Assembly: GCF_000020225.1 (NCBI RefSeq)
Contig: NC_010655.1
Span: 2,070,001 to 2,102,000 of the forward strand
Origin: Akkermansia muciniphila ATCC BAA-835
GTDB lineage: Bacteria > Verrucomicrobiota > Verrucomicrobiia > Verrucomicrobiales > Akkermansiaceae
Direction: 5' to 3'
DNA length: 32,000 bases
Shown here one piece after another: positions 3,291 to 32,000 of the stretch (the first letter of the stretch is position 1; each line of letters opens with the position of its first letter). The notes below the pieces were generated by a model. The model had not been told where the DNA came from, did no database searches, and was given only the letters and a program-made list of their open reading frames with translations. Both the position numbers and the translations under genes were made by a program.

Positions 3291-3366
3291 GTTCCCTTCT
3301 TCTAGCGGTCAGGAAGGCCGTCTCTCCAACGGCAAAGGCTCGGTTCAACTCCGGCAGGGAATGCCA
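3291..3366 (+). tRNA. tRNA-Glu(CUC)-like gene with encoded CCA (atypical C37 and C49-C65 mismatch)
   Basis: 76 nt fold by hand into a full cloverleaf. Acceptor GTTCCCT/AGGGAAT (G1-U72), U8, D-stem TTCT/GGAA with A14, GG and A21. The anticodon stem GCCGT/ACGGC is perfect, with loop C-U-CUC-C-A. T-arm is CTCGG-TTCAACT-CCGGC, then discriminator G and CCA. It lies in a 680-bp gap with no credible ORF. Confidence 0.6.
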
Positions 3367-5872: not shown

Positions 5873-6232
5873 TGGTGGAGGCGACGGGAGTCGAACCCGT
5901 GTCCTGAAGGCCATTGATGACAGCATCTCCATGTTCAGACGCATATTGCTGCTTTCGCGGCTGCTTCGCTATGCGTCAACTAGGCAAGCTCGCTAGTTGC
6001 CTGTGGAAGTCTCGTGCGTTGCGCGGCAACCCCGCATTGCACCAGCCTGCTGTGTCTTCGTCGTCCCCTCTAGCAGGCGTTGAGGTTCTGACGCGGCTGA
6101 ACTAATTAGGCAGCCAGAGCAAGGTCGTTAGACTCTGCATTTATTTTTTTAATCGGCTTTTTAGAAGGCCAGCCGATTAACCTTCACATGCAGCCAGCAC
6201 CGCAGACTTCCAGTCGAAACCATGGCGCCCCC
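5873..6232 (-). ncRNA. ssrA: tmRNA (SsrA), tag reading frame AESNDLALAA-stop at 6138..6106
   Basis: The reverse strand starts GGGGGCGCCATGGTTTCGAC and ends GGAGTCGAACCCGTCGCCTCCACCA. The acceptor GGGGGCG/CGCCTCC has the G3-U70 alanine identity pair. Internal ..AAUAAAU GCA GAG UCU AAC GAC CUU GCU CUG GCU GCC UAA gives a canonical ..ALAA degradation tag. Confidence 0.92.
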
Positions 6233-6313: not shown

Positions 6314-6390
<77 letters not shown>

Positions 6391-6602: not shown

Positions 6603-8753
6603 ATGAGCGAGTTCAAGGTGATCAGGTCGCCGATGGAGGCATTGAAGAAGTACTTCGGCTTTTCCTGCTTGAGGGAGGGCCAGGATCAAGTGGTGGCTTC
6701 CATTATGGAAGGCCGCAATGTATTGGTCGTGATGCCCACGGGAGGAGGAAAATCCCTGTGTTACCAGCTTCCCTCCTTGTGCCGGGACGGGGTTTGCCTG
6801 GTTGTCAGTCCTCTAATCGCTTTAATGAAAGATCAGGTGGATGCTCTTGTCGCCAGAGGGATTCCCGCCACCATGATTAACAGCTCCCTGAGTTTTCCTG
6901 AGCAAAAGGAACGTTTGGAAGGAATGAAGAAGGGTGCGTTCAAGCTGGTATATGTGGCTCCTGAACGTTTTGGTCATGAAGGGTTCATGCATGCTCTGGC
7001 GGAGGTGGATGTAAATATGGTGGCTGTGGATGAAGCGCATTGCCTGAGCCAGTGGGGGCACGATTTCCGTCCGGATTATCTGAAGCTGGGAAAAGCTGTT
7101 GAAATGATGGGGCGGCCTCAGGTGGCTGCTCTGACCGCCACGGCTACTCCGCGGGTGCGGGAAGATATTCTGAAACATTTGGGGCTGGATGATCCGGTGA
7201 CGATCGTACGAGGGTTTGCGCGGGAAAACCTGCATTTCCGCATTACTGCGTGCGATACGCACAAAGACAAATACAAGAGGCTGTACGAATTGGTGAAGCG
7301 TTACAAGACGGGTATTATTTATTGCTCCACCCGCAAAAAAGTGGAGCAGGTATATGAGGCTCTTTCCGATTTTGGATTGAGCGTGACAGCCTATCACGCA
7401 GGCATGACGGATGAACAGAGAGAGGAAGCCCAGAACGCTTTCATGAACCGCCATGCGGATATTGTTATTGCCACGAATGCTTTTGGAATGGGCATTGACC
7501 GTGCGGACGTCAGGTTTGTTGCCCATTTTGAGATTCCCGGCAGTGTGGAGGCCTATTATCAGGAGGCCGGCCGAGCCGGACGAGACGGGGAGGAGGCTTA
7601 TTGCGAACTTTTGTTCAACCATGCGGATTTGCGGACCCAGGAATTTTTTATTGAAGGAGTGAATCCGGGAATTCCATTGATTGTGGAGCTGTACGAGTTG
7701 CTCAGGAAGCATTGCAGCGCGGAAACCCACGATGTCATGTGGTCTCTGGAGGAAATGGCGGAGCGTCTCAAATGCCGCAATGCCATGCAGGTGGGAGCTG
7801 CTTTATCCGTTCTTATACGCAATGGAGCGATCAGCCGTCATGACGTTCCGGGACAACGCGTGAAGCTTACCAGAGTGACGGATCCTTCCGTAAGCGGCTT
7901 GAAGATTCCTCTGGATGAAGATGCCCTGCGGGAAAAGGAAGTGAGGGACCGGGAAAAACTGAAGGCAATGACGGAGTTCGCTTATTCCTCCGGCTGCCGT
8001 CAGCAATGGATTTTGAATTATTTCGGGGAGGAAGATGGAGTGCCGTGCGGCCGCTGCGACCAGTGCCTGGCCCTGGGCGTTGAGGAAGGCCAATCCCTGG
8101 GAGAAGAAGAGACTTTGGTGGTGCGGCAGGCGTTGAGCGGGATTGCGCGCGCATCCGTGCGTTTGGCTGATGGTTCCTGGCAGGGAAGGTGGGGCAGGAC
8201 GAAAATCATCCAGATGCTCAAAGGGGCGAAAACCCAGGAGTTGTTAAGAACATCCTTGGTCCGGCTGAGTACTTATGGCATCCTTTCCCGATGGAGTGAG
8301 GACGATATCCGCCAGTTGTTCCGTGCCATGCAGATGGCGGGATTGACCAGAATGAGCGGGGAGGCGGACCGTCCCCTGATTACCCTGAGTCCGAAAGGAA
8401 ATGAAGTGATGATGGGGCGCAAGAAGGCATCTTTGGTTTGGCCTTTTGCCCGCCGGGGAAAAATATCCGTATCTATGGAGCAGGCCAGAGTTCGGTCTAC
8501 GGGAAATTTGGCTGCCCTGGGAGAGTTTGACGAGGATTTGTTTTTGAAGTTGAAGGAGCTGAGGAATGAACTGGCACGGGAAGCCGGGATTCCGGCTTAT
8601 GCCGTGTTTCATAATTCTACACTGGAAGGTTTGGCTAGGTTGAAACCTACCACCCGCCGTGGTGCTATGAACGTTCACGGCATTGGAGAGCAGAAAGCTG
8701 CTCGTTACTTGGATGATTTCCTGGAAGTCATTGCCGAGCATTGCGGGGTGTGA
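6603..8753 (+). CDS. recQ: ATP-dependent DNA helicase RecQ (helicase core, Zn-binding RQC, C-terminal HRDC)
   Basis: 716 aa with diagnostic motifs: FGFSCLREGQ, MPTGGGKSLCYQLP, VDEAHCLSQWGHDFRPDY, ALTATAT, IIYCSTRK, ATNAFGMGIDRADVRFVAH, YYQEAGRAGRDG. It also has the Cys cluster CRQQ..CGRCDQC and an HRDC-like tail (LKELRNELAREAGIPAYAVFHNSTLEGLA). Confidence 0.96.
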   Translation: MSEFKVIRSPMEALKKYFGFSCLREGQDQVVASIMEGRNVLVVMPTGGGKSLCYQLPSLCRDGVCLVVSPLIALMKDQVDALVARGIPATMINSSLSFPEQKERLEGMKKGAFKLVYVAPERFGHEGFMHALAEVDVNMVAVDEAHCLSQWGHDFRPDYLKLGKAVEMMGRPQVAALTATATPRVREDILKHLGLDDPVTIVRGFARENLHFRITACDTHKDKYKRLYELVKRYKTGIIYCSTRKKVEQVYEALSDFGLSVTAYHAGMTDEQREEAQNAFMNRHADIVIATNAFGMGIDRADVRFVAHFEIPGSVEAYYQEAGRAGRDGEEAYCELLFNHADLRTQEFFIEGVNPGIPLIVELYELLRKHCSAETHDVMWSLEEMAERLKCRNAMQVGAALSVLIRNGAISRHDVPGQRVKLTRVTDPSVSGLKIPLDEDALREKEVRDREKLKAMTEFAYSSGCRQQWILNYFGEEDGVPCGRCDQCLALGVEEGQSLGEEETLVVRQALSGIARASVRLADGSWQGRWGRTKIIQMLKGAKTQELLRTSLVRLSTYGILSRWSEDDIRQLFRAMQMAGLTRMSGEADRPLITLSPKGNEVMMGRKKASLVWPFARRGKISVSMEQARVRSTGNLAALGEFDEDLFLKLKELRNELAREAGIPAYAVFHNSTLEGLARLKPTTRRGAMNVHGIGEQKAARYLDDFLEVIAEHCGV

Positions 8754-9112: not shown

Positions 9113-9205
9113 GGAGCGGTGGCTGAGAGGCTGAAAGCACTCCTTTGCTAAAGGAACGTACTGGCAAAACCGGTACCGAGGGTTCGAATCCCTCCCGCTC
9201 CGCCA
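9113..9205 (+). tRNA. tRNA-Ser(GCU), class II, CCA encoded
   Basis: GGAGCGGTGGCTGAGAGGCTGAAAGCACTCCTTTGCTAAAGGAAC..long variable arm..GGGTTCGAATCCCTCCCGCTCCGCCA. Very close in layout to E. coli tRNA-Ser(GCU), with anticodon loop UU-GCU-AA. Confidence 0.9.
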
Positions 9206-9256: not shown

Positions 9257-9764
9257 TTTGCAAGCCAGGGGATTAGATGCTGGGTAATTATTTGCTGGTC
9301 TGATTGTCTTATTTTAGTTTTTTATTTTTTCATTTGAAGTTGAATAACTTATACAAAAAACGCCGGTTAGGATGCCTAGTCAGCGTTTTTTCTAATATCC
9401 TTATTATAGGCATCAGGATAATTATAGGTGCATTTGAAAAAAGGTCTGGACTGGAACCCGTCCCTACGGGTGTTTTTTGTTCATGATGATATAAAATTTT
9501 GAATGTACGTCAGTTGTTGCAGGAGATGGATAGGATAAAACTGCCGTGGCTGGTAAAAGTGGAGAGTGCCCGGTGTTGAATGGACACGAACGTGGTTCAT
9601 GCGCCGGCCTCGGAGTGGTTCACGACTGCACCAGATATGTTAACAGATTCATAATGTGTGGGAAAGGATGGAACAGCCACTTCAGAATGGGCTCTGTCTT
9701 TTTTTTAATCTGCGGAAGATTTAACGGATTTTGGAATAATCTGGTGTTATCAATAATCAAGACC

Positions 9765-12976: not shown

Positions 12977-14275
12977 ATGAAAATTTACCGTCCTTCCGAT
13001 ACCTGCTTTGACGAGATGAAGCGCCGGATGAACCGCCGCGCACTCCCGGAGGATTCCGTAAGGGATACCGTGAACGCTATTATCCGGGATGTTTCCGTGC
13101 GCGGAGATGAAGCCCTGTTTGATTATGCCGCCAGATTTGACAAGGCGCATCTGGATTCTTCCTCCCTGTTCGTAACGGAGGCAGAACTGGCGGAAGCGGA
13201 GGCCATGGTGGAGGAGTCTGTGAAGGAGGCCATTGCCGTTTCTCTGGCAAACATCCATTATTTTTCAGACCGCAGCCGCAGGCGGGACTGGTCCGGCGTG
13301 AATGCGCAGGGCGTGGAGGTAGCGGAGCGGTTCCTTCCGTACGACCGTGTGGGCATTTATATCCCCGGAGGAAAGGCTCCCCTGGTATCTACTTCCATCA
13401 TGACGGGCGGTTTTGCTCAGGCCGCCGGCGTGCGGGAGATTGTGGCCGCCACGCCCTGCGGGCCGGACGGCCGGGTGAATCCCGCGCTTTTGTATGCGCT
13501 GAAAGCCTCCGGCGCAACGGAGATTGTCAAGATAGGGGGAGCCCAGGCGATAGCCGCCCTTGCGCTGGGGACGGAGAGCGTGAGACCGGTGGAGAAGATT
13601 TTTGGCCCCGGCAACCGTTTTGTGGTGGAGGCCAAGCGTCAGTTGGTGGGGGCCGTTGCCATTGATTTGCTGCCCGGCCCCAGTGAAGTAATGGTGCTGG
13701 CAGATGATACTGCGGATGCGGAGTTCCTTGCTGCCGACCTGCTGGCGCAGGGCGAGCATGGCCCGGACAGCGTAGTTGTTTTTGTCACCACATCGAAAGC
13801 GTTATTGGAGCAGGTGGAGGCGGAAGTGGAACGCCAGGCCGCCCTGCTGAGCCGCGGGTCCATCATCCGGGAGGTGCTGGACAAGCATGCCTACGGTTTT
13901 CTGGTTTCTTCCATTCAGGAAGGGGTGGAACTGGTTAATGCTTTTGCGCCGGAACATTTGGTGCTCGTCACGAGGGATGAAGAAGCCGTGCTGAATGGCA
14001 TCAGGACGGCGGGAGCCATTTACGCAGGCTCCCTTTCTACTGTAGCCTGCGGGGATTTTCTGGCGGGTCCCAGCCATACGCTGCCTACCGGCGGCGCCGG
14101 CAAGTCTTTTTCCGGCTTGCGGGCGGATCAGTTCCAGCGCCGCACCAGCGTGGTGCGCATGGACCGGAATGCCGTGCTGAACTCCGCCCCGTATGTGGCA
14201 GAGTTCGCCCGGGTGGAGGGGCTGGACGCCCACAACCACTCCATTCAGGTTCGCGCCGCCCGTGTGGACCGGTAA
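12977..14275 (+). CDS. hisD: histidinol dehydrogenase
   Basis: 432 aa with HisD blocks: IYIPGGKAPLVSTSIM, GPGNRFV, AGPSEVMVLAD, DLLAQGEHGPDS, APEHL, GDFLAGPSHTLPTGG. Confidence 0.95.
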   Translation: MKIYRPSDTCFDEMKRRMNRRALPEDSVRDTVNAIIRDVSVRGDEALFDYAARFDKAHLDSSSLFVTEAELAEAEAMVEESVKEAIAVSLANIHYFSDRSRRRDWSGVNAQGVEVAERFLPYDRVGIYIPGGKAPLVSTSIMTGGFAQAAGVREIVAATPCGPDGRVNPALLYALKASGATEIVKIGGAQAIAALALGTESVRPVEKIFGPGNRFVVEAKRQLVGAVAIDLLPGPSEVMVLADDTADAEFLAADLLAQGEHGPDSVVVFVTTSKALLEQVEAEVERQAALLSRGSIIREVLDKHAYGFLVSSIQEGVELVNAFAPEHLVLVTRDEEAVLNGIRTAGAIYAGSLSTVACGDFLAGPSHTLPTGGAGKSFSGLRADQFQRRTSVVRMDRNAVLNSAPYVAEFARVEGLDAHNHSIQVRAARVDR

Positions 14276-14537
14276 TTCCGGATTTTTCCAATTCTCTCCA
14301 TGATGCAACAGCGGGGAACCAGGGAACGGTTGCCAATTGCAGCAGGTCTCCTTATTGCCGGACATGGCGATATGGGCGTTTCCCGGCATCATGGGGGTGG
14401 AGTGACGTCGTCTGTTGAGAGCATGGTAACCGGCTTGCCGATTCATTTGCGAGATTTGTCGGGATGGAACGCTCATCGGATGGGAGGTTTCATCCATTTG
14501 CTCGAAAATCCCGCGTAATCGTTTCACCGCATTTCTC

Positions 14538-15434: not shown

Positions 15435-15653
15435 GGAAGGGGGGGCATCCGGTTCGGCGGAAGTCCCCGGCAGAATTATGGGGATTTCCATGGTCGGAAA
15501 AACGGGAGGGAGGGTTCTTTTGAGCCGGTTCCAAGTGACGGCTGGCAGATTGTTGAAGGTTCTTTTTTATCCACTTTCAGGAAAGGCAGAGGATTCCTTC
15601 CCGTGCAAAAAGCTTGAAATTCGGAGAACGCCCGGTAACGTTATGCACTTGTT

Positions 15654-21196: not shown

Positions 21197-23359
21197 TTAC
21201 GGTTCAAAGGGGATGTTCAGCGCTTCATACGCCAGCATCCTGCATTGCTTGATATCCAGCTTGCCGGATGGGAGCACCGGGATGCGTTCTACGGGAATAA
21301 TCTCCTTGGGGCACCAGAGGGCCGGCAGACCCTGGTCAATCAGGCCGTGCCTGATGAGGGTTCGCGCCTGGTGCACGTAATCCGTCACCAGGGTGGTGAG
21401 CAGGGCTACGGCTTCCCCTTTTACGGGATCCGGAATGGTGACGACGGCTATCCGCCGTTCTTCGTCCGCCGGATCCAGATTCCAAATGTTCATAATGGCT
21501 GCTTCCAGGGCTTCATGAGGCACCATTTCCCCGCCTATTTTGGAAAAGCGGGAAATGCGTCCTTCAATCTTCAGGAAGCCGAATTCGTCTGCGGAACCTA
21601 TGTCTCCGGTTTTTAGCCAGCCGTCCACGAAAATATCGCGATCCGTCTCCGGACCGCCCAGATAGCCGGGAAAGATGTTCGGTCCTTTCAGCCAGATCAT
21701 GCCGGAAGTAGTGATGGGAACCACGCGTCCCGTGTGAGGGCTGGTGATGCGTATGGCGATTCCGGGAAGGAGGGCTCCTACGGAACTCTTTTTCATGCCG
21801 GGAATGAAGTCTCCGGCGGCATTGGATGGCGCCGGGTCAATGAAGTTGACGGAACAGACGGGAGAGGCTTCCGTCAGGCCGTAGCCTTCACATGGAATAA
21901 TGCCGAATTTTTCCCGGAAAGCGATGGAAAGGTCTTCCGGCAGTTTTTCCGCGCCAACGATCAGGTAGCGGACGGTTTTAAAGGTGTCCGGTTCGCAGCG
22001 TTTCATGAAACCGCGCAGGAAAGTGGGCGTGGTGACTACCAGACTGATTCCGTACTGCTTGATAAGGGCTCCCAGCCGTTTGGCCTCAAGAGGGGAGGGG
22101 TAGGTGACCATGTCGTACCCGCCGATCATCGGATACCATAGCCCGATGGTGATGCCGAAGCAGTGGAATACGGGCAGGCTTCCCAGAAACCTGTTTTGCG
22201 GTTCCAGCGTAATGCGGGAGGAACATTGAGAGATGTTGGAAAGAAGGTTATGGTGGGTCAGCGGCACGCCCTTGGGTTCCCCGGAAGAGCCGGAAGTGAA
22301 CATCAGAACGGCTTCGTCCGCGCCTGTAGGCGCGTCCAGCCCCAGTTTTTTAATCATGAACCCCGCTGTCAGGAATTTGATGGCGAGGCCCCAGCGTTTG
22401 GCGGAACCTTTAAGCAGGGGAATTTCCCGCTCCATGAGGATCAGATCCCGCTGGGGGGGCCACGGGAAATTCTGGAGCTTTCGCATGAAGGTATCCGCAG
22501 TAATAAACCAGTCCACGCCGGATTGCTTTACAGAGCTGGCAAAGGCTCCTTCCGAAGCGGAATAATTGAAATTCACCGGTGTTTTCCCGGCGAACAGGCA
22601 GCCCAGATTGGCTATGGCCGCTCCCTTGCCCGGCGGAAGAATGATGCCGACCCGGCGATTCGAGGTAATTTTTTTCAACCTCTTGGCAAAGGCTACGGAA
22701 ATGGCCAGCAGCTGGCCGTAAGTCAGCGTAGTGTCATCAATGCCGTCGATGACCCGGCAATCGGAATGAAGTTTGAGGCTGCGGAAAAGGAGGGCGGACA
22801 GGGAACCGTGGAGCTGAGGCAGCGTGGCGTATGCCTGGGCGGAACATTCCAGCCACGCGGAGGTCAGGCGTGCTGCCATCTCGGCCCCGGGGGCCAGTTT
22901 GGGGAGAATATGTATCTGGATGTCCGCCTGGGCGTCCGTATCGGCCTCCGCATCCAGCACGGAGTTCGTGTAAAAACCGGCATAGACCGGTACGGGGGAA
23001 ATATGCAGGGCTTCCAGGGCCTTGATGACCCGCGGAGGAATTTGGCTGATGGAACCTTTCACATGGGAGACGGGACCGGGCAGAAATACTACTCTTCTGC
23101 CTTCGTTAATGCGTTCCATGATGGCGGAACGCAGCGCGACAGGGTCGCTGCCTCCGGCCTGGAACAGGATGCCGTCCGCTTTAGTGGATTCCAGATGGGA
23201 GGCGGTGGCCGTATCCGGGGGGAGACCTTCTTCCACCAGGTAGGTCATGCGGTCCCTGCCCAGTTCTTTTTCGAACATCAGTAGGGTTTTATAAGATACT
23301 TTGTTGAAGATCAACAGATCACCTGAGTCGGATAAATTGGAGGAACCAAAAATGGCCAT
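21197..23359 (-). CDS. Aas-like acyl-ACP synthetase / AMP-dependent ligase with a degenerate N-terminal PlsC-like module
   Basis: The ORF track starts at a TTG (23398) and the first ATG is at 23359. Adenylation motifs are clear: FTSGSSGEPKGVPLTH, GYGLTEASPV, WLKTGDIG, GRISRFSKIGGEMV, LPSGKLD. The N-terminal ~200 aa resembles the acyltransferase half of E. coli Aas, but I cannot find HX4D (see findings). The stop is 3 nt from the xseA start, so an operon is likely. Confidence 0.85.
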   Translation of the reverse strand: MAIFGSSNLSDSGDLLIFNKVSYKTLLMFEKELGRDRMTYLVEEGLPPDTATASHLESTKADGILFQAGGSDPVALRSAIMERINEGRRVVFLPGPVSHVKGSISQIPPRVIKALEALHISPVPVYAGFYTNSVLDAEADTDAQADIQIHILPKLAPGAEMAARLTSAWLECSAQAYATLPQLHGSLSALLFRSLKLHSDCRVIDGIDDTTLTYGQLLAISVAFAKRLKKITSNRRVGIILPPGKGAAIANLGCLFAGKTPVNFNYSASEGAFASSVKQSGVDWFITADTFMRKLQNFPWPPQRDLILMEREIPLLKGSAKRWGLAIKFLTAGFMIKKLGLDAPTGADEAVLMFTSGSSGEPKGVPLTHHNLLSNISQCSSRITLEPQNRFLGSLPVFHCFGITIGLWYPMIGGYDMVTYPSPLEAKRLGALIKQYGISLVVTTPTFLRGFMKRCEPDTFKTVRYLIVGAEKLPEDLSIAFREKFGIIPCEGYGLTEASPVCSVNFIDPAPSNAAGDFIPGMKKSSVGALLPGIAIRITSPHTGRVVPITTSGMIWLKGPNIFPGYLGGPETDRDIFVDGWLKTGDIGSADEFGFLKIEGRISRFSKIGGEMVPHEALEAAIMNIWNLDPADEERRIAVVTIPDPVKGEAVALLTTLVTDYVHQARTLIRHGLIDQGLPALWCPKEIIPVERIPVLPSGKLDIKQCRMLAYEALNIPFEP

Positions 23360-23597
23360 GGGAAAAGGATAAAAAATTTGCTTGAAGCATTTTAGCAACT
23401 TGAAGAACCGGGAGCAAGGAGGAAAGGTGCATTCCCGGTTGCTTTTCCTTTATCCGGATCGGTCTCGGAAGCCTTTCCCGGCTCGGTACGTTTTTTATGG
23501 GAAGAGTATTGTTTTTCATGGGATTGTCTGGATTTGGCGTTATCTCCTGCGAAGGCGTTTCCGCAAACCAGCTGTTCCGATATTTACTTACTGATGA

Positions 23598-23846
23598 ATG
23601 GGCCTGGTGGGCAGCAACATCTTCGGACGAGAAGCGCTGGCGGAAATCCGCGTGAACGCGGCGCAGGACCTGGGAGACCGGAGGGGGGAAACGAACGTCT
23701 CTCTGCTGGGCAACCCCGGCTTTGCGCAAAGCGTGAGGGGAGCGAAAGTGGGAACGACGGCGCTGCAGCTGGGAGCCGGACTGAGCGTGCCGGTGGGAAC
23801 GAAGGGAACCATCTATGTGAACGGGAACGCGGACATCCGTGACGGG
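23598..23846 (+). repeat. 249-bp direct repeat, copy A (partner 29557..29805)
   Basis: Hand alignment at offset 5959 with no gaps and 6 mismatches, all at third codon positions. Confidence 0.95.
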
Positions 23847-23893
23847 GCTGCTCAGTAAACGGGACGTATCAGCTACTGCTACGATTTCTGGTC
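23598..23893 (+). pseudogene. 5'-deleted remnant of an autotransporter beta-barrel C-terminus (paralog of 24322..29850)
   Basis: 23598-23846 matches 29557-29805 at 243 of 249 nt. In-frame homology continues in degraded form to 23893, with a premature TAA at 23856-23858 and loss of the terminal ..YRHDF-stop (here ..YCYDFW..). No passenger domain or signal peptide lies upstream. Confidence 0.85.
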
Positions 23894-24057
23894 TTTGCTC
23901 CGAACTTGCTGCGGGCAAACAATACACCCTCTTTTTCTATGTATGAAAGGTGAAATTCACGAAAGGTGTTATTTTGCTGCATCGTTTGTTCAGGAATAGG
24001 GAAGGGATGAAAAATAATTTTTGCGTCCATTTTTATTTTCATGTGAAATGTTGCATT

Positions 24058-24074
24058 GCGGATTAGCAATCCGC
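24058..24074. promoter_or_regulatory. distal 17-bp dyad site D1 (GCGGATT-AGC-AATCCGC)
   Basis: Perfect 7-3-7 palindrome. Its reverse complement recurs at 24233-24249 (15/17 including the centre). Confidence 0.6.
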
Positions 24075-24226
24075 AGAAGCATTATCCAGAAAATAGACCA
24101 GAATCAGATATTTTTGATGTTTATAATGAAAGAGATATGGAATGTTTTTTTGAAAAAATTCTGAATTGGATATTAAGAAGATGATGATTTCCTGGTATGC
24201 AACATGCATTGGATCAATGTTAAATA

Positions 24227-24255
24227 TTGACGGCGGATTGCTAATTCGGTAATAG
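24227..24255 (+). promoter_or_regulatory. putative promoter of autotransporter 1 with proximal dyad site P1 as its spacer
   Basis: TTGACG (24227-24232), then the 17-nt GCGGATT-GCT-AATTCGG (24233-24249), then TAATAG (24250-24255), 66 nt upstream of ATG 24322. Confidence 0.5.
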
Positions 24256-24321
24256 CTATATATTGCAAACAGCCAATCAGGACGGCTGGATAGCTTTATT
24301 ATTTACCCATATTTGCAAGTT

Positions 24322-27300
24322 ATGAAGTTACGTCTACCGCTCAAGTTGTTGTCCGCCTTATTGTCGTTTTATGCCATATCCGGTTTTCATGTGTTCGCTG
24401 CTACGGAGTGGGACGGCAGCAGATATTCCGGTAATATCTATACGTGGGTAGGGAGTTCGTCCAATGATTTTCATAACGGCGGCATTGTCCTGACCAATCC
24501 GGATGGAACATACGGTCCTGTCAATACGAATTGGGGTTCCGTTTCAGAGGAGGGGAGTATTTGGAACCTTTTTGCCAATGAAACGGGACTGTCGGAATAT
24601 AACACATTGCGCTTTGTCGCATCAGGCACGGAAGTGGGCGATGTCACCGTATCGGCGACCAATAAAAATCCATCCTGCTCCTTTACGCCATTTACCATGG
24701 GGGGATTGATTGTGGAGGAAGGGGCATCAGGGTTCTCCCTTGTCCCGAACAATAATGCCCAGAGGACTCTTATACTGGGGAGAGCGGGTACGGAAGAGCC
24801 GGTATTATTTACGGTTCGTGAAGATTTTTCCCTGGGTTCTTCCTCCAATGCATGGGGCCCGGTTAATGTGAATGCAGACTGGAATGTCCTTGTGGCAAAT
24901 GGCAAGACGCTGAATGTTTACGGGGCACTGAATTCTTCCGGCCGGACCATTACGGTGGGCGGGGAAGGATTCAGCGGTACGTTGGTTTTAAACAATGCGG
25001 CCAATGCATCCATGACTGCTGAATGGGTCATCACCTCCGGCTCTACTGTAAGGTGCATGAATAATTCCGCTTTGGGAAGCGGCCTTGTTACGCTGGATGG
25101 GGGGACGCTTGATTTTAACTCGCAAACGATCGGATCAACCATTACGTTGAACATGAGCGGGACCGGGACATTGCAGAATGTGACAGTTGATGGAGCAATT
25201 TTATCTTATACGTCTTCATCGGGAAATGATGGGATTACTGCTTCAAATACCACGTGGACGTCCGGGAAGATAGATATTGGGCGTTTGTTGCAGGGATTTA
25301 GTGCCGAAGGTTCCAATACCGTTGATTTGGGAGCGGAGCTTGGCGAGGGCTTTAGCGTACTGGGTTTAGATACAGGGCAATACAGAATAGAAGGCAGCGT
25401 GCTGACGATAGAAGACGGGGCGATATCCAGCGTGACGTGGGTATCTGCGGGAGAAGGAGGGGAATTGGAAGAAACGGTCAAGAACGCCTTTACGCTGGCT
25501 CTTGGGGAGGGGAGTGCGGCCAACGTCAGCCTGGGATATCTGAACGGGACCCTGACGACCAGCGGGGACAAAGTCTATCAAATCACCAACACCGGCGGAA
25601 CCAAAATCAACCTGTCCGGAGTATACAACAGCGGGGCGACCCTGCCGTCCGGCAACCTCAACTACCAGGGGGACATCTGGATGGACATCAACGGAGGAGC
25701 ATTCGGCATCATCGCCGGAGGTGTCACCAATGAATGGGGCACCAACCTCCAGACCAGCACGCTGACTGGGGACACCCATGTGCAGCTCTCTGGAAACGCC
25801 ACGGCGGAACACGTCATCGGCGGGAACAACAAGGGAGCAAGCACTACCCTGACGGGAAACACCAACGTTACCGTCAAAGATAACGCCATCGTGGCGGGAG
25901 CCATCATCGGAGGAAGCACCTCCTCCCACAATGCCGTCACCACCATCACAGGAAACACGAGCGTCCTGGTCACCAACATCCAGCACAGCAACAGCGCGAC
26001 CGTCAACCTGGGAGACTTCGGCAACGTCACAGCCCAAAACTTCATCACGGGCGGAAGCGCGTGGACGGCCAACCAGACTTCAGGAACGACCATCCAGGGC
26101 AACACCTCGGTAACGATTAATGTAGGCGATGCGGAACTCTCCGGCACGGAAGGGCACAACAACTTCGTCAAAAACATCTATGGAGGCAGTTACGCAAACA
26201 CGAAATCCGAGGGCAACGGAGCCGTACAAAAAGTGGAAGGAAACTCAAGCGTCTCCATCAGCGGAAAAGAAGGAATCACCTTCACGGGAGACATCATGGG
26301 CGGCTCCTTCTGGAACTGGGGCAACGGCACGACGCTGACCACCAACGGAAACACCAGCGTCTCCATTGACGGAGGTTCCACCTTCACGGGCAAAATCGTG
26401 GGCGGCTCCTGGAGAGGAAGCACGTGGACGGCGGAAGATCCCACAGCCCTGCCCGTCAGCATTGGCGGCAACATCACCGTCACCCTTGGACAGGGCACCT
26501 ACCTGGGAGACATCTACGGGGCGGGCAACTGTGGCACGGTAGGAGGCGAAGTCCACGTCTCGCTGACGGGAGGAAGCATCTTTGGGGAGGAAGGAGAAGA
26601 AAGCGGCATCACCATCGGCGGAAGCGCCGGAGCGGCGGTAGAAGGAAACAGGACGCTGGAACTCAAGGGAACCTTTGGAACCGGGGACTTCCAAAACGTC
26701 ACCTTCACCCGGTTTGATGAAATCAATATCGCGCAGGAAGAAACCTCGGCCACCATCTACGCGCTGACCGACAGCCCGGCCCTGACCAAAACGGGAGCGG
26801 GAACCCTGACACTCGGGGCGGACGCGGCAGGAGCGGAAACCATCCTTGACGGAACTACGGAAGGAATCACCATCTCGGAAGGCAGCCTGAACCTCTCCGG
26901 CGCCGGCGGCAGCCATATGAAAGGAACGTGGAACATCGCCTCCGGCTCCCGTCTCACCGGAGTCAGCGGAACCGTAACCGTAGGAGAAGGAGGCCTGGAC
27001 GGACTGACCATCGCCCTGGGAACGGAAAACATCGGCCAGGACACGCAGGCGTCTGGCGCCGTCATCATCAACGGCAGCGGAACGGGAAGCGACCCGAACC
27101 TGTCCATAGAGGGGGAAGGGCTGACGCTGGACCTGAGCAACGACGCCGTCGTCAACCTTCTGCTGGACCACAAAACCGACGACTCCTCCAGCTACCTGAC
27201 CCTGACCAGCGGAACGCTGACCGTCGGCGACCTGGGCGACATCGCCTTCACTACCGACCTTCTGTCCAACTACGGCATCCGGGTCACCGGAACGGACGGA

Positions 27301-29850
27301 GGCAGCCTGGTGCTCAGCGGAGCGGCCACCGGCCTCTACCGCGTGCAGGAGGAAGGAGGAAACGCCCATGAAGTCAACTCCTATCAAACGCTCTCCGGCT
27401 ACGCCGGCGTCGTCATCGGCGGCGGCCAGACCCTGACGGTCAACCTGGCCGGAGCCCCGGGCGAATCCGACGGACAGGGAGCTAAAATCAACAACCTGAT
27501 GGGAGCCACGGGCAGCAGCCTGGTCGTCAACAACACCGGAGACGGCACGGCCGTCGTCATCCTCAACAACAAACAAATGACGACGGGAGAAGACGACATC
27601 GACCCGGCCGGCCAGGACACCGTCATGGGCGGCAGCATCACGGGAGGCAACAACGTCGCCTTCATCAAGGAAGGAACCGGGACGCTGACGGTCGGAGGAA
27701 CGATGGACGTGGAAACCCTCGCCCTGCGTGAAGGAAACATCGTCCTCAACGGCGCGTCAAACACCCTGGACACCCTCACTCTGGAAGGAGGCGGCCTGAC
27801 CATTAACGGCAACGCCGAAGTCGGAACCATCACCGGCACGGAAGCCGGAGGCTCCCTGACCATCCAGGGAACTCTCAACCTGACCGGAACAGGCGAAATA
27901 AACGACGGCTCCATCACCGGAACCGGCACCCTCCGCATCCAGGAAGGAGCGGAACTGGCCCTGGGCGGAGAAGCCCGGCTGGACGGAACCTCAGTCACCG
28001 CCGACGGCACGCTGGCCCTCTCCGGAACGGAATCCGGCGCCATCATCAGCCTCTCCGGCAGCGGCACCCTGTCCATGAACGGAGGCAGCCTCTCCATCTC
28101 CTCGGCAACAACCTCCTCCGGAACCTTCTCCGGCACGCTGGCAGGCAGCGGCACCCTGGACATCTCCGGGCAAGCCACCCAATACCTGCAAACCGGCAAT
28201 AAGGACTACGACCTCGCCGTCCGTGACGGAGGCGTCCTGGTCCTGAAAGGCACCGCGGACGCCCCCACGCTGAACTACAACAGCATCACCGCCGGAAACA
28301 ACGGCACCCTGCGTATTGAAGCCACCGGAGACGCCCAGGGCAGCGCCAACACCACGCTCAACGTGGAAAGCATCACCTTCCAGAACGGCTCCACGACGGA
28401 ACTGATCTACAACTTCAACCAGGACGCCCCCTTTGGCGCCCCCATGCTGACGGCGGATACCATCACCGTGCAGGACGGAGCCGGCTTCCTCCTCTCCAAC
28501 ATGGAAGGAAACGCCGCCATGAACGCGGGGAGCGACCTCCATGACGTCATCCTGATGAGCGCTACCGGCAGCATCAGCGGCCTGGAAGACGGGCAAAGCC
28601 TCGCCGCCCGGATATCCGGCCTCTTCGCCGTCTACTACCAGGACGCCACGCTGAACCGCGACGGAAACGACATCCTGCTCAATGCCACACTCCGGCAGGA
28701 AAACCTCTTCGCCTCCGCGGCCGACACGTGGAACTCCGCCGCCGGAGCCAGCCTGCTCTGGGAAGCCCGCAAAAACCTGGACCCCGACTCCCAGCTGGCC
28801 CAATTCATGAACGGCGTCAGCACCATGATCAATGACGGCAACCTCTCCGGAGCCACCCGCGCTATGGCGGCGGCAGCTGGGAGCACGGTCAACGCGCTGG
28901 GGACGGCGCAGAGGGACGCCCTGCGCGACCAGATGGGCTGGATCAGGAACCGGACCACCCTCATGGGCGTCAACCCGGCCTACGTCAACGACGACCTCCC
29001 CCGCTTCCACATGTGGATGGAAGGCACGGGCTCCTACGCCAAACTGGACACCCGCGGGGATGAAAGCGGCTACCAGCTCACCACCTGGGGAGGTACGGTA
29101 GGCGTGGACGCGGACCTCAGCGACCGCCTCACAGTGGGAGCGGCCTTCACGGCCAGCTACGGCGACCTGACGGCCGGCGCGGCGGACAGCGCCGACGGGC
29201 ACCTGGACAGCTACTACGCCAGCCTCTTCGGCCGCTACCAGGACAGGCGCTGGGCGCACACGCTCATCCTGACGGGAGGGTGGAACGACGCGAAACTCAA
29301 CCGTACGGTCAACTACGGGGAAGGAAGCTACGGGACGCAGGGAAGCACCAGCGGGTGGGGCTTTGGAGCGATGTATGAACTCACCTACGACGTATACCTC
29401 AACGAAAACCGCAGCAGCGTGCTGCAGCCGCTGTTCAACGCCTCGGTGGTGACGACGCGGATGGACGGCTATGAGGAAACGGGTGCGGGCAACGCGGGCC
29501 TGAACGTCGGCAGGCAGGACTGGACGACGGGGACGCTGGCGCTGGGCGGCCGGTGGATGGGCCTGGTGGGCAGCAACATCTTCGGACGAGAAGCGCTGGC
29601 GGAAATCCGAGTAAACGCGGCGCAGGACCTGGGAGACCGGAGAGGGGAAACGAACGTCTCTCTGCTGGGCAACCCCGGCTTCGCGCAAAGCGTGAGGGGG
29701 GCGAAAGTGGGAACGACGGCGCTGCAGCTGGGAGCCGGACTGAGCGTGCCGGTGGGAACGAAGGGAACCATCTACGTGAACGGGAACGCGGACATCCGTG
29801 ACGGGTCCAGCGCGCTGAACGGAAGCATCGGCTACCGCCACGACTTCTAA
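24322..29850 (+). CDS. giant autotransporter (type Va) surface protein: signal peptide, ~1500-aa beta-helical passenger with PATR-type repeats, C-terminal 12-strand beta-barrel
   Basis: The ORF track begins at TTG 24313. ATG 24322 gives MKLRLPLKLLSALLSFYAISGFHVFA/ATEW, parallel to the paralog at 30318. The passenger is G/T/N/S-rich with ..LTKTGAGTLTLG.., ..FIKEGTGTLTVGG.. and repeated GNTSVxI coils. The beta-domain runs from about 28990 (FHMWMEGTGSYAKLD..GYQLTTWGGTVGVD..) to the terminal ..GSIGYRHDF (aromatic C-terminus). Confidence 0.92.
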   Translation: MKLRLPLKLLSALLSFYAISGFHVFAATEWDGSRYSGNIYTWVGSSSNDFHNGGIVLTNPDGTYGPVNTNWGSVSEEGSIWNLFANETGLSEYNTLRFVASGTEVGDVTVSATNKNPSCSFTPFTMGGLIVEEGASGFSLVPNNNAQRTLILGRAGTEEPVLFTVREDFSLGSSSNAWGPVNVNADWNVLVANGKTLNVYGALNSSGRTITVGGEGFSGTLVLNNAANASMTAEWVITSGSTVRCMNNSALGSGLVTLDGGTLDFNSQTIGSTITLNMSGTGTLQNVTVDGAILSYTSSSGNDGITASNTTWTSGKIDIGRLLQGFSAEGSNTVDLGAELGEGFSVLGLDTGQYRIEGSVLTIEDGAISSVTWVSAGEGGELEETVKNAFTLALGEGSAANVSLGYLNGTLTTSGDKVYQITNTGGTKINLSGVYNSGATLPSGNLNYQGDIWMDINGGAFGIIAGGVTNEWGTNLQTSTLTGDTHVQLSGNATAEHVIGGNNKGASTTLTGNTNVTVKDNAIVAGAIIGGSTSSHNAVTTITGNTSVLVTNIQHSNSATVNLGDFGNVTAQNFITGGSAWTANQTSGTTIQGNTSVTINVGDAELSGTEGHNNFVKNIYGGSYANTKSEGNGAVQKVEGNSSVSISGKEGITFTGDIMGGSFWNWGNGTTLTTNGNTSVSIDGGSTFTGKIVGGSWRGSTWTAEDPTALPVSIGGNITVTLGQGTYLGDIYGAGNCGTVGGEVHVSLTGGSIFGEEGEESGITIGGSAGAAVEGNRTLELKGTFGTGDFQNVTFTRFDEINIAQEETSATIYALTDSPALTKTGAGTLTLGADAAGAETILDGTTEGITISEGSLNLSGAGGSHMKGTWNIASGSRLTGVSGTVTVGEGGLDGLTIALGTENIGQDTQASGAVIINGSGTGSDPNLSIEGEGLTLDLSNDAVVNLLLDHKTDDSSSYLTLTSGTLTVGDLGDIAFTTDLLSNYGIRVTGTDGGSLVLSGAATGLYRVQEEGGNAHEVNSYQTLSGYAGVVIGGGQTLTVNLAGAPGESDGQGAKINNLMGATGSSLVVNNTGDGTAVVILNNKQMTTGEDDIDPAGQDTVMGGSITGGNNVAFIKEGTGTLTVGGTMDVETLALREGNIVLNGASNTLDTLTLEGGGLTINGNAEVGTITGTEAGGSLTIQGTLNLTGTGEINDGSITGTGTLRIQEGAELALGGEARLDGTSVTADGTLALSGTESGAIISLSGSGTLSMNGGSLSISSATTSSGTFSGTLAGSGTLDISGQATQYLQTGNKDYDLAVRDGGVLVLKGTADAPTLNYNSITAGNNGTLRIEATGDAQGSANTTLNVESITFQNGSTTELIYNFNQDAPFGAPMLTADTITVQDGAGFLLSNMEGNAAMNAGSDLHDVILMSATGSISGLEDGQSLAARISGLFAVYYQDATLNRDGNDILLNATLRQENLFASAADTWNSAAGASLLWEARKNLDPDSQLAQFMNGVSTMINDGNLSGATRAMAAAAGSTVNALGTAQRDALRDQMGWIRNRTTLMGVNPAYVNDDLPRFHMWMEGTGSYAKLDTRGDESGYQLTTWGGTVGVDADLSDRLTVGAAFTASYGDLTAGAADSADGHLDSYYASLFGRYQDRRWAHTLILTGGWNDAKLNRTVNYGEGSYGTQGSTSGWGFGAMYELTYDVYLNENRSSVLQPLFNASVVTTRMDGYEETGAGNAGLNVGRQDWTTGTLALGGRWMGLVGSNIFGREALAEIRVNAAQDLGDRRGETNVSLLGNPGFAQSVRGAKVGTTALQLGAGLSVPVGTKGTIYVNGNADIRDGSSALNGSIGYRHDF
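29557..29805 (+). repeat. 249-bp direct repeat, copy B (partner 23598..23846)
   Basis: See copy A. It lies inside the beta-barrel coding region of the intact gene. Confidence 0.95.
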
Positions 29851-29910
29851 CAAGAAAGAAAACACAAGGAGAGGCCCCCCACCCCCGAAAGGCCTTCCTC
29901 CTGACCCTCC

Positions 29911-29943
29911 AGAGCCGTTCCGGAATTATTCCGGAACGGCTCT
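29911..29943 (+). terminator. terminator hairpin after autotransporter 1
   Basis: A 33-nt near-perfect palindrome AGAGCCGTTCCGGAAT-T-ATTCCGGAACGGCTCT, 60 nt after the stop. The downstream T-run is weak (GTTGCTT). Confidence 0.6.
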
Positions 29944-30057
29944 GTTGCTTAGGGGAATCCCGCTAAGCCGATACGGTGCGGGGAGGTAGTTTTTACAATA
30001 TATTGGAATGATTTTTATTAAAATAGTTTTTTCACCGCAGTCGCTTGAATTCGTAAA

Positions 30058-30074
30058 GCGGATTAAAAATTCGC
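30058..30074. promoter_or_regulatory. distal 17-bp dyad site D2 (GCGGATT-AAA-AATTCGC)
   Basis: Same motif as D1. Its reverse complement recurs at 30237-30253 (15/17 including the centre). Confidence 0.6.
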
Positions 30075-30230
30075 CGTGTAATGGGAACCGGGCCAATATA
30101 CCAGAGTTGCCCCGCCTGTTTGCTTATACTGATAAGGATAGAACGATGGATGCCCCTGATTCCAGACCAGATAAAGCATGGAAATACTCTTCTGGATGAT
30201 GCGCAACACCTACGGAATCAATGTTTAAGC

Positions 30231-30259
30231 TTGTAGGAGGATTTTTAATCCGCTAATGA
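30231..30259 (+). promoter_or_regulatory. putative promoter of autotransporter 2 with proximal dyad site P2 as its spacer
   Basis: TTGTAG (30231-30236), then the 17-nt GAGGATT-TTT-AATCCGC (30237-30253), then TAATGA (30254-30259), 58 nt upstream of ATG 30318. The geometry is the same as at 24227-24255. Confidence 0.5.
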
Positions 30260-30317
30260 TGGTAAAAAGCCTCCTGTCAGTTTTGGGAGGAATTTCACGT
30301 ACGCCCTTTTAAAAACT

Positions 30318-32000
30318 ATGAAGTTGCACCTCCCTTTAAGTCTTTTGTCCTCCCTGCTTGCCTGCATGGCTGCTGTTTCCTCACCGCATGCCGTTGCGGA
30401 AACCTATACATGGCTGGGGGGGACGGTGGATGTTCATTTAAATACTAACTGGACTCCGGATTACGGCAGCAGCAACTGGTCGGCAACATGGGCCGGAACG
30501 GCGACAAACAGCATGCGTTTTGATGCGGGTAGCATGACGGGGCAGGTCAAGGCTCTCCAGGCTTCTTTCAATACGCTTTCACTTGGGGGAATAACCGTTA
30601 CGGATAATTCCGATGGATTCAGCGTTTCCAAAAGCAACGGCTCCAACCGCACCGTTAATTTACGTGATGGAGGAGAAGGGTATACGCTGTTTGACATAGG
30701 CGGGGATTTTTCTCTGGGAGTTGCCAGCCAGGTATGGAACGGAGTTGTTTTCAACTCCAGCGCCCTGTTTAACATTGCCTCCGGCAAGACCATGAATATT
30801 TACGGTGGTCTGGGAATGGCTGGAACGGGAGCCAGGACGATGACGGTGGGGACGGACGGTTTTGCGGGAACCCTTATCCTGAATACGGCTGCCCAGTCTT
30901 CCATGACGGCTGATTGGGTCATTTCCCATGGGGCGACCGTTCAACTGAACAATGCCGCGGCTTTGGGGTCCGGATCGGTCAGCTTAAACGGCGGCAATAT
31001 AACGGCCCAGCACGATGCTGTTTATAACAATGCCCTGGCCGTGAGCGGTTCTTCCGGCATGAACGTGAATGCTGCCACGCGGTTTGCCAGTGTCAGCCTT
31101 TCCAATGCCGCTGTCCTGAACATGAACGGAGGGACGCTTGGCATTGCGAATGCCGGCGTTTTGACACTGGGTTCTTCAGGGACCATTACGGGGAATTTGA
31201 CGCTGGGAAACACGTCTCTCCTGAATTTTTCCGCTCTTCCGGCTTCCGGATCATATTTGCTTAATGTAACAGGAACGCTGACCGTGGGCAGTGAATTGCT
31301 TCTGGGGCAGGAAACGATGGAAGGCGTAGCCTGGACGGAGGGTTCCTACAGTCTGGTTCATGCGGGTTCCGTAGAGGGAGTCCCTGCCAGCTCTTTCGTT
31401 CTGGGCGACAATCTTCTGGGTTCATGGAGCACGGAAAACAATAATCTTACCCTGGTTGTGGAGCAGGTGGCTTTGCTTGAATGGAAAGGCGGCGACGGGA
31501 TATGGTCTGTAACTGCTCCGGCTTCTTCACCGTGGAAAAATGAAGGTGTGTACAATAATGCTTCCGGAGTGGTCATGGGAGATATTGACGGAAGTTCTCT
31601 GCAAACAGTAACCATTGATGGAGTTGTCTCTCCCTCAATCATGATGGTCCAGGCGGATACGACGGATTATGTGTGGAATGCCGCAGATGAAGGAGGTGCT
31701 CTGGAAGGCAGCGGTAATCTGGAGAAGACCGGCAGTGCCAAGCTGACCATTAATATGGATAATGCTGATTATGCCGGAAAGGTCATTTTGGGGGGTGGAA
31801 CGCTTGAAATGGGGAATGATGCCGCTTTAGGCACAGGTGATCTGGCATTTGACGGCGGTACCCTCCGGTATGGAACAGGGGTAACGGCGGATATTTCCGG
31901 GCAGATTTCCACAACGAGCAAAAGTTCCGTGAAGGTGGATACCAACGGTAATAACGTAAGCTGGGCTTCCGCGGATCATTACAAGGCTCTGAACTTGGAA
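30318..32000 (+). CDS. autotransporter-family surface protein paralog, 3'-truncated by the window edge
   Basis: Absent from the ORF track. It is open from ATG 30318 to base 32000 (561 codons): MKLHLPLSLLSSLLACMAAVSSPHAVA/ETYTWLGG.. Homology to gene 1: TLILNTAAQSSMTADWVISHGATVQLNNAAALGSGSVSLNGG versus TLVLNNAANASMTAEWVITSGSTVRCMNNSALGSGLVTLDGG. PATR motif: LEKTGSAKLTI..GKVILGGGTLEMGNDAALGTG. Confidence 0.88.
   Translation, partial: MKLHLPLSLLSSLLACMAAVSSPHAVAETYTWLGGTVDVHLNTNWTPDYGSSNWSATWAGTATNSMRFDAGSMTGQVKALQASFNTLSLGGITVTDNSDGFSVSKSNGSNRTVNLRDGGEGYTLFDIGGDFSLGVASQVWNGVVFNSSALFNIASGKTMNIYGGLGMAGTGARTMTVGTDGFAGTLILNTAAQSSMTADWVISHGATVQLNNAAALGSGSVSLNGGNITAQHDAVYNNALAVSGSSGMNVNAATRFASVSLSNAAVLNMNGGTLGIANAGVLTLGSSGTITGNLTLGNTSLLNFSALPASGSYLLNVTGTLTVGSELLLGQETMEGVAWTEGSYSLVHAGSVEGVPASSFVLGDNLLGSWSTENNNLTLVVEQVALLEWKGGDGIWSVTAPASSPWKNEGVYNNASGVVMGDIDGSSLQTVTIDGVVSPSIMMVQADTTDYVWNAADEGGALEGSGNLEKTGSAKLTINMDNADYAGKVILGGGTLEMGNDAALGTGDLAFDGGTLRYGTGVTADISGQISTTSKSSVKVDTNGNNVSWASADHYKALNLE

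Follow-up and report, generated by a model that had tools for sequence, protein, structure and literature searches.

Two genes for large type V autotransporters occupy the right end of a 32,000-nucleotide stretch of the Akkermansia muciniphila ATCC BAA-835 genome (contig NC_010655.1, positions 2,070,001 to 2,102,000; hereafter the window, numbered from its first letter), and each is preceded by a short segment of DNA that occurs in both orientations in public assemblies. That these segments, S1 upstream of the gene AT1 and S2 upstream of AT2, are real and independent inversion switches of a known Akkermansia family is beyond reasonable doubt. An earlier interpretation made from the letters of the window (the sequence-only reading) had proposed one independent ON/OFF switch per gene; this was right, but it is not new, since S1 and S2 are members of that known inverton family. 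We regard as probable the wider explanation developed below, in which switches of this family are combined with a split promoter and with the loss and gain of whole switch-and-gene units.

Inversion of S1 and S2 in public assemblies

The gene order between 23598 and 32000 runs from an 86-codon barrel remnant through a 463-bp gap to AT1, and through a 467-bp gap to AT2. Each gap holds a pair of inverted 17-bp near-palindromes, GCGGA-TTNNNAA-TCCGC, 175-179 bp apart (dyad arms 24059-24074 and 24233-24248 for S1; 30057-30075 and 30236-30254 for S2). Allowing up to one mismatch, CGGATTNNNAATCCG has four matches in the 32-kb window, all of them within the dyad pairs, where 0.15 would be expected, and none of 100 shuffles attained four. 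A pattern by which site pairs of the family could be sought is GGATTNNNAAT. The elements of the two loci are as follows (no strand is assigned).

24058..24074: S1 distal site, GCGGATTAGCAATCCGC (GCGGA-TTAGCAA-TCCGC), unchanged at the left junction of the inverted form
24075..24232: S1 invertible segment, 158 bp, GC 0.29, found reverse-complemented in other assemblies
24233..24249: S1 proximal site, GCGGATTGCTAATTCGG (GCGGA-TTGCTAA-TTCGG), also the predicted 17-bp promoter spacer
30058..30074: S2 distal site, GCGGATTAAAAATTCGC (GCGGA-TTAAAAA-TTCGC)
30075..30236: S2 invertible segment, 162 bp, found reverse-complemented in other assemblies
30237..30253: S2 proximal site, GAGGATTTTTAATCCGC (GAGGA-TTTTTAA-TCCGC), also a predicted promoter spacer

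Copies of the locus from other assemblies were gathered by exact-protein look-ups and one metagenome scan, and inversions were counted over distinct assemblies with the window included. S1 is inverted in three of 22 assemblies (CP024738, CP024740 and CP072050) and S2 in three of 29 (OKSU01000290.1, L017; OHAF01008045.1, L024; ERZ28753682 contig_9275, L061), in every case with the predicted junctions; CP024738 matches the predicted inverted form of S1 at 210/210 positions. The dyad pairs, which had been proposed conditionally as recombination sites, are thus borne out as such in independent assemblies. Among the other assemblies the window orientation is the majority state, with 18/21 for S1 and 25/28 for S2. 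In CP072050.1 (L003/L012) the flanks of S1 are 100% identical to the window and the interior is only ~86% identical, with many small indels; this interior looks, as expected, like a consensus polished from mixed-orientation reads.

The two switches are found in opposite combinations: L017 and L061 carry S1 forward and S2 inverted, whereas CP024738 and CP024740 carry S1 inverted and S2 forward. Each of the joint states (forward, forward), (inverted, forward) and (forward, inverted) is seen on single contigs (the one-contig cases include L017, L061, L064 and L065), thus indicating that S1 and S2 are not coupled, in agreement with the independent switching that had been proposed.

The inverted copies could instead reflect faulty assembly, with dyads that are no more than operator or terminator palindromes of the ordinary kind, a reading to which the presence of several noisy long-read drafts among the assemblies lends some colour. 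Arms of 16-19 bp are, however, too short to mislead assemblers, and the exact predicted junctions recur in six independent records at two loci and again at a third locus. Flipping of S1 at the level of reads has moreover been published (PMC11892184), and we consider the artefact explanation refuted for practical purposes.

Relation to known inversion systems

PMC13343947 quotes from Jiang 2019 the inverted-repeat (IR) motif by which Akkermansia invertons are recognised, CGGATT..AATCCG, and shows that the cps1 capsule locus is switched by one such inverton in culture, in mice and in humans. PMC11892184 reports 32 invertons of IR group 138 in ATCC BAA-835, and describes an inverton at 2092093-2092109-2092267-2092283 that adjoins two autotransporter genes and whose orientation was almost entirely reverse in first-generation mice and had become mostly forward by generation five. 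When read as 0-based and half-open, the published interval 2092093-2092283 has 16-nt arms and a 158-nt gap, which is the geometry of S1, and the S1 arms in CP042830.1 lie at 2092095-2092110 and 2092269-2092284, within 1-2 bp of the published inverton. This match in geometry and coordinates indicates that S1 has already been published; S2 differs from the published inverton in geometry and lies ~6 kb away. As in group 138, the four arms match CGGATT..AATCCG at 0-1 mismatch and both segments are found in both orientations. The suggestion that the motif had not been described before therefore falls, because the motif is the one already published for Akkermansia invertons, and S1 itself has been reported. 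Set beside the accessible literature, our additions are small: strand exchange mapped to the site centre, a distinct central triplet at each locus, the -35/site/-10 layout and naturally occurring deletions.

Nothing essential separates S1 and S2 from the Akkermansia invertons (Jiang 2019, via PMC13343947; group 138 of PMC11892184; cps1), with which they share the organism, the IR motif, the ~190-bp size and surface-gene neighbours. The capsular polysaccharide inversions of Bacteroides fragilis (Krinos 2001, cited in PMC13343947) are likewise scattered short invertible promoters that act independently at each surface locus and yield combinatorial variation. They differ in phylum, IR sequence and promoter type, the whole promoter lying inside the segment there and apparently being split by the site here. 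The B. fragilis promoter inversions are served in trans by the global serine recombinase Mpi; a trans enzyme like Mpi would be compatible with our locus, whereas the Hin/Gin/Mpi-type arrangement with a recombinase gene in or beside the invertible DNA is not found in the window ORFs tested or in the 10 kb downstream.

The mpl lipoprotein genes of Mycoplasma penetrans, about 38 in number, are each reportedly equipped with an invertible promoter of their own, as Horino et al. are said to have described in 2003. Like AT1 and AT2 they are tandem surface-protein paralogues with a small invertible promoter per gene and independent ON/OFF states, although the organism, sites and proteins are unrelated and about 38 genes compare with two. 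In fimS of Escherichia coli the full promoter lies inside the element, and the tyrosine recombinases FimB and FimE are encoded alongside. This resembles our locus in having a short invertible element upstream of an adhesin operon and an ON/OFF promoter orientation, but the recombinase genes are adjacent in fimS, whereas here there are none within 23 kb upstream or 10 kb downstream.

A candidate split promoter

Further switches of the family were found through a barrel-domain homologue search, which yielded mostly gene fragments, and through contig look-ups. S3 precedes a third autotransporter gene, next to trpA, in an A. muciniphila-like genome (L054, L056). P1 is the S3 orthologue in an Akkermansia-like genome of GC 0.59 (L050, L051), and P2, from the same genome as P1, adjoins genes for a 487-aa polytopic membrane protein and a lipid A acyltransferase-like protein. 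P2 is present in opposite orientations in L050 (15403-15587) and L051 (15350-15513); the L050 segment has an extra 21-nt hairpin inside. The autotransporters of L048 and L049 (GC 0.41) and of L053 (GC 0.65) belong to other organisms, have no such sites and were set aside.

Comparison of the five distinct switches S1, S2, S3, P1 and P2 in like orientation revealed a TTGAC-like hexamer as the last 6 bp of invertible DNA at the proximal site (TTGACG, TTGTAG, TTGACA, TTGACG and TTGACT, respectively) and a fixed flank past that site that opens with TA in all five (TAATAG, TAATGA, TATTTA, TATGGT and TAGTTT). None of the flanks beyond the distal sites opens with TA, and the hexamer and the fixed TA are the only features at a fixed distance that the five switches have in common. 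A split promoter is proposed where the -35 element would lie on mobile DNA, the proximal 17-bp site would act as the spacer, and a weak TA-initiated -10 element would be fixed ~60 nt before the ATG.

24227..24232, plus strand: predicted S1 -35 element, TTGACG (five-switch comparison)
24250..24255, plus strand: predicted weak S1 -10 element, TAATAG, in fixed DNA (five-switch comparison)
30231..30236, plus strand: predicted S2 -35 element, TTGTAG, invariant in S2 orthologues to 82-83% protein identity
30254..30259, plus strand: predicted weak S2 -10 element, TAATGA (or AATGAT, with an 18-nt spacer; five-switch comparison)

The window orientation would assemble both promoters (ON), and inversion would take the -35 element ~175 bp away and put GCTTCT (S1) or TACACG (S2) in its place (OFF). 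The -10 elements are weak and have no final T, so such a promoter would depend on its -35. The sequence comparison lends support to the spacer-embedded promoter of the sequence-only reading, and moderately favours this layout and ON/OFF assignment. Two further facts fit this reading: in S2 orthologues down to 82-83% protein identity the sequence is nearly invariant from GCAAC, across the site, to within the 5' leader, and -35 and TATAAT-type signals have been reported at A. muciniphila transcription start sites (PMC4782308).

Several points weigh against this assignment, beginning with its basis in a comparison of five switches. A generic sigma-70 scan gave four matches against a shuffle expectation of 3.9 and left the predicted promoters unflagged, and the predicted -10 elements of S1, S2 and S3 do not have the usual T at position 6. 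Rival -10-like hexamers also lie inside the segments (TATAAT at 24124 in S1 and TATACT in S2, both on the plus strand, and TGGTATATT on the minus strand at the distal end of S2), in blocks that are conserved between S1 and S2. A literature search for earlier inversion switches with a split -35 and -10 returned nothing relevant.

These internal hexamers raise two alternatives. In a classical inverton, a complete promoter inside the segment would fire through the proximal site in the window orientation, and TTGAC would belong to a binding region for an accessory protein or the recombinase. TATAAT (24124-24129) of S1 and the aligned TATACT of S2 do fall in a block conserved across S1, S2 and the S2 orthologues, and published accounts place a promoter motif within Akkermansia invertons (PMC11892184). 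The block is not recognisable in S3, P1 or P2, however, and has no good -35 at 16-18 bp upstream, whereas TTGAC with the fixed TA is common to all five switches at a fixed distance; we consider the classical layout unlikely. The second alternative reverses the ON state: an extended -10 promoter that points leftward near the distal site (TGGTATATT in S2 and TGGTCTATT in S1, minus strand) would face the gene after inversion only, and the window would show both genes OFF. The block concerned, CCAATATACCAGA or AATAGACCAGA, is conserved in both switches and in every S2 orthologue, but it is absent from S3, P1 and P2, and the S1 version has a C at the critical second position. That the window orientation prevails among isolates (18/21 for S1 and 25/28 for S2) speaks weakly either way, and this opposite assignment appears quite improbable.

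Two more observations touch on the split promoter, the first of them in its favour. A paralogue without a switch in L021 (2949-2996), which has no CGGATT-type site, carries a fixed TTGACA-17-TAAAAT promoter ~17 nt before the ATG of a gene with an MKLHLPL start. The spacer, GGAGGCTTTTTTTCGCA, is loosely like the S2 proximal site GAGGATTTTTAATCCGC, and this sequence may represent a decayed, locked-ON switch. Just past the predicted transcription starts there is a small stem-loop, CAGCC...GGCTG in S1 (24270-24290) and CCUCCUG...CGGGAGG in S2 (30269-30291), which is conserved in S2 orthologues and has a stability no better than that of shuffled sequences (z = -0.7 and -0.15).

Exchange region and recombinase

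The arms of S1 differ in their outer 5 bp (GCGGA vs CCGAA) and these differences remain with the flanks after inversion; the arms of S2 differ in their inner 5 bp (TTCGC vs TCCTC) and these differences travel with the segment. Together, the fixed outer and the mobile inner mismatches confine strand exchange to the 9-bp sequence A-TTNNNAA-T. The central 7 bp are identical between partner sites in 5/5 switches, a count that is partly built in for S3, P1 and P2 and to that extent tells against leaning on it, these three having been found by requiring reverse-complementary central triplets; all 13 mismatches fall in the 5-bp arms. The central triplets are AGC in S1, AAA in S2, CGC in S3 and TAT in P2, which bears out the locus-specific cores that had been suggested.

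Site-specific recombination flips each ~160-bp segment. In the mechanism that we propose, the recombinase would act in trans from elsewhere in the genome, and the differing centres would keep S1 and S2 from recombining with each other. From the sequence of the sites we infer that an odd-length centre between short inverted arms would suit a tyrosine recombinase whose core has a 7-bp overlap more than a serine recombinase with its 2-bp stagger. In keeping with action in trans, no recombinase domain was detected in the window ORFs tested (23 kb upstream) or in the 10 kb downstream, so the recombinase gene that was to be looked for beside the array did not turn up there. A literature search for a named Akkermansia invertase gave nothing relevant.

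A more general scheme can be put forward tentatively, and it may well not hold: the invertons of Akkermansia would combine a split promoter with an address code, in which the -35 is the sole mobile promoter element, the 17-bp site is the spacer, the weak -10 is fixed, which would make the OFF state a clean one, and each of ~30 switches has its own 3-nt centre, so that one trans-acting recombinase (probably a tyrosine recombinase with a 7-bp overlap) would flip all of them independently and would never join one switch to another. There are 32 possible non-equivalent triplets, and 32 is also the number of invertons reported in ATCC BAA-835.

Just inside the proximal site (24199-24232 and 30203-30236) there is a block GCAACA-N8-ATCAATGTT-N5-TTG that is kept in S1, S2 and their orthologues. 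The E. coli consensus for IHF is WATCAANNNNTTR. Within the block, ATCAA-N4 is IHF-like in part and may be a site for an accessory protein. S3 and P1 have GAAAAC ... TGAT at positions similar to those of the GCAACA/ATCAATGTT block, which is itself specific to S1 and S2 and not family-wide. A scan of genome contigs with ATCAATGTTNNNNNTTGNNNNNGGATTNNNAAT was too strict to serve as a census of the family, giving five matches of which the sole one in Akkermansia was L033, an S1 orthologue.

In form the 15-17 bp site cannot be told from the anticodon stem-loop of a tRNA, with GCGGA/TCCGC as the stem and TT-NNN-AA as the loop. When viral contigs were scanned for pairs of perfect sites, the matches were all clusters of phage tRNA genes (L037-L047), because CGGATTNNNAATCCG looks like an anticodon stem-loop. 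We take the resemblance as coincidence and draw from it no support for a tRNA origin of the site; the anticodon arm of the host tRNA-Ser(GCU) at 9113-9205 differs from it. There is no tRNA in either gap, and an Rfam scan of 23300-32000 found no significant family (best E-value 0.025, far below the gathering score).

The autotransporter genes and their intergenic regions

The window proteins are encoded identically at ~2.08-2.10 Mb in the 2.66-Mb complete genomes CP174100, CP073284, CP071807 and CP042830, among others. The features that flank the switches are listed below.

23595..23889, plus strand: autotransporter barrel-tail remnant, left copy of a direct repeat that brackets the S1 and AT1 unit (repeat comparison)
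24322..29850, plus strand: AT1, type V autotransporter, 1842 aa (full-length PF03797 match)
29554..29848, plus strand: right copy of the direct repeat, the AT1 barrel tail (repeat comparison)
29910..29944, plus strand: terminator-like hairpin with a 16-17 bp stem and a poor U tract, ~60 nt past the AT1 stop (folding against shuffles)
30318..32000, plus strand: 5' part of AT2, 561 of 1953 codons, the gene being cut by the window end (full length from complete genomes)

Residues 1564-1821 of AT1 match the Pfam Autotransporter domain PF03797, a C-terminal 12-strand beta-barrel, over its full length (E = 2e-40), and at least 12 assemblies encode exactly this protein. Full-length AT2 (1953 aa) carries PF03797 together with PATR/TIGR02601 repeats, which are matched in AT2 and not in AT1. 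The N-termini of AT1 and AT2, MKLRLPLKLLSALLSFYAISGFHVFA and MKLHLPLSLLSSLLACMAAVSSPHA, resemble signal peptides by eye. Identity between the two proteins is ~99% over the last ~320 aa, 61% over the C-terminal ~970 and 39% over the first ~250.

The remnant ORF (23598-23858, 86 aa), which is annotated as an 86-aa gene in many genomes, covers only the last 65 profile positions (191-255) of PF03797. Its DNA forms a direct repeat with the end of AT1 (23595-23846 and 29554-29805) that is 97% identical over 252 nt, close to the 249-bp near-identical barrel segment noted from the sequence, and weaker similarity extends to 23889/29848 for a total of 296 nt. The gaps have a GC content of 0.36 (463 bp) and 0.46 (467 bp) compared with 0.60 for AT1. 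Their homology shows in a two-sequence MAFFT alignment, where mean column identity is 72%, and in a 55-nt block at 71%.

The hairpin after AT1 is strong relative to shuffles (z = -5.3) and the same module follows AT2 (z = -4.3), but there is no comparable hairpin 3' of the remnant (z = +0.8). The repeating pattern of barrel tail, terminator and gap that had been described therefore holds for the two gaps with their dyad pairs and for the hairpin after AT1, but not for a terminator after the remnant. Downstream of AT2 are genes for an acyl-ACP thioesterase, an epimerase and a histidine kinase on the opposite strand, which shows that the array consists of two genes and the remnant; the pattern occurs twice, as proposed, but no third unit follows.

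Four tRNA genes (1701-1784, 3291-3366, 6314-6390 and 9113-9205) and a tmRNA gene with the tag AESNDLALAA (5873-6232, minus strand), beside recQ (6603-8753) in the left third of the window, are unrelated to the switches.

Loss and gain of switch-and-gene units

Some assemblies lack whole units. L025 and L029 have neither S1 nor AT1; there the S2 gap and AT2 come straight after the remnant (~9600-9615; window 23848 joined to 29972). The last ~45 codons of AT1, its 3' UTR and the hairpin are also gone, and this junction is therefore not a simple crossover between the 252-bp repeats. In L063 (ERZ28760693 contig_5559, 13268-14351; window 28.8-29.9 kb) AT1 runs by way of the common ~1.1-kb 3' tail into sequence past AT2, and both S2 and the body of AT2 have been deleted. 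The upstream autotransporters of L021 and L026 are different ones, of larger size. Whole switch-and-gene units could be lost or gained by homology, through gene ends that are almost identical over about 1 kb at the 3' side and through the 252-bp remnant; the unit loss through shared homology that the sequence-only reading had anticipated is borne out by L025, L029 and L063.

L014 (FXYB01000046.1) departs from the window from position 15623, at the end of the AT1 hairpin (29944), and enters an unrelated region with lepA, sulfatase and GH20 genes. This is probably a draft-assembly join at the repeated hairpin module, and not at a recombination site; the alternative is a real rearrangement.

Significance

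A. muciniphila is a candidate next-generation probiotic, and surface variation affects its colonisation and its interaction with the host. The inverton class has been known since 2019, and the shift of S1 over mouse generations was shown in 2025. For specialists, the base-level anatomy of S1 and S2, the directly testable prediction of the ON and OFF states of AT1 and AT2, and the deletion variants as possible controls may be useful. Within one clone, cells could display both of the ~200-kDa autotransporters, one of them or neither, and whole switch-and-gene units are also lost or gained among strains.

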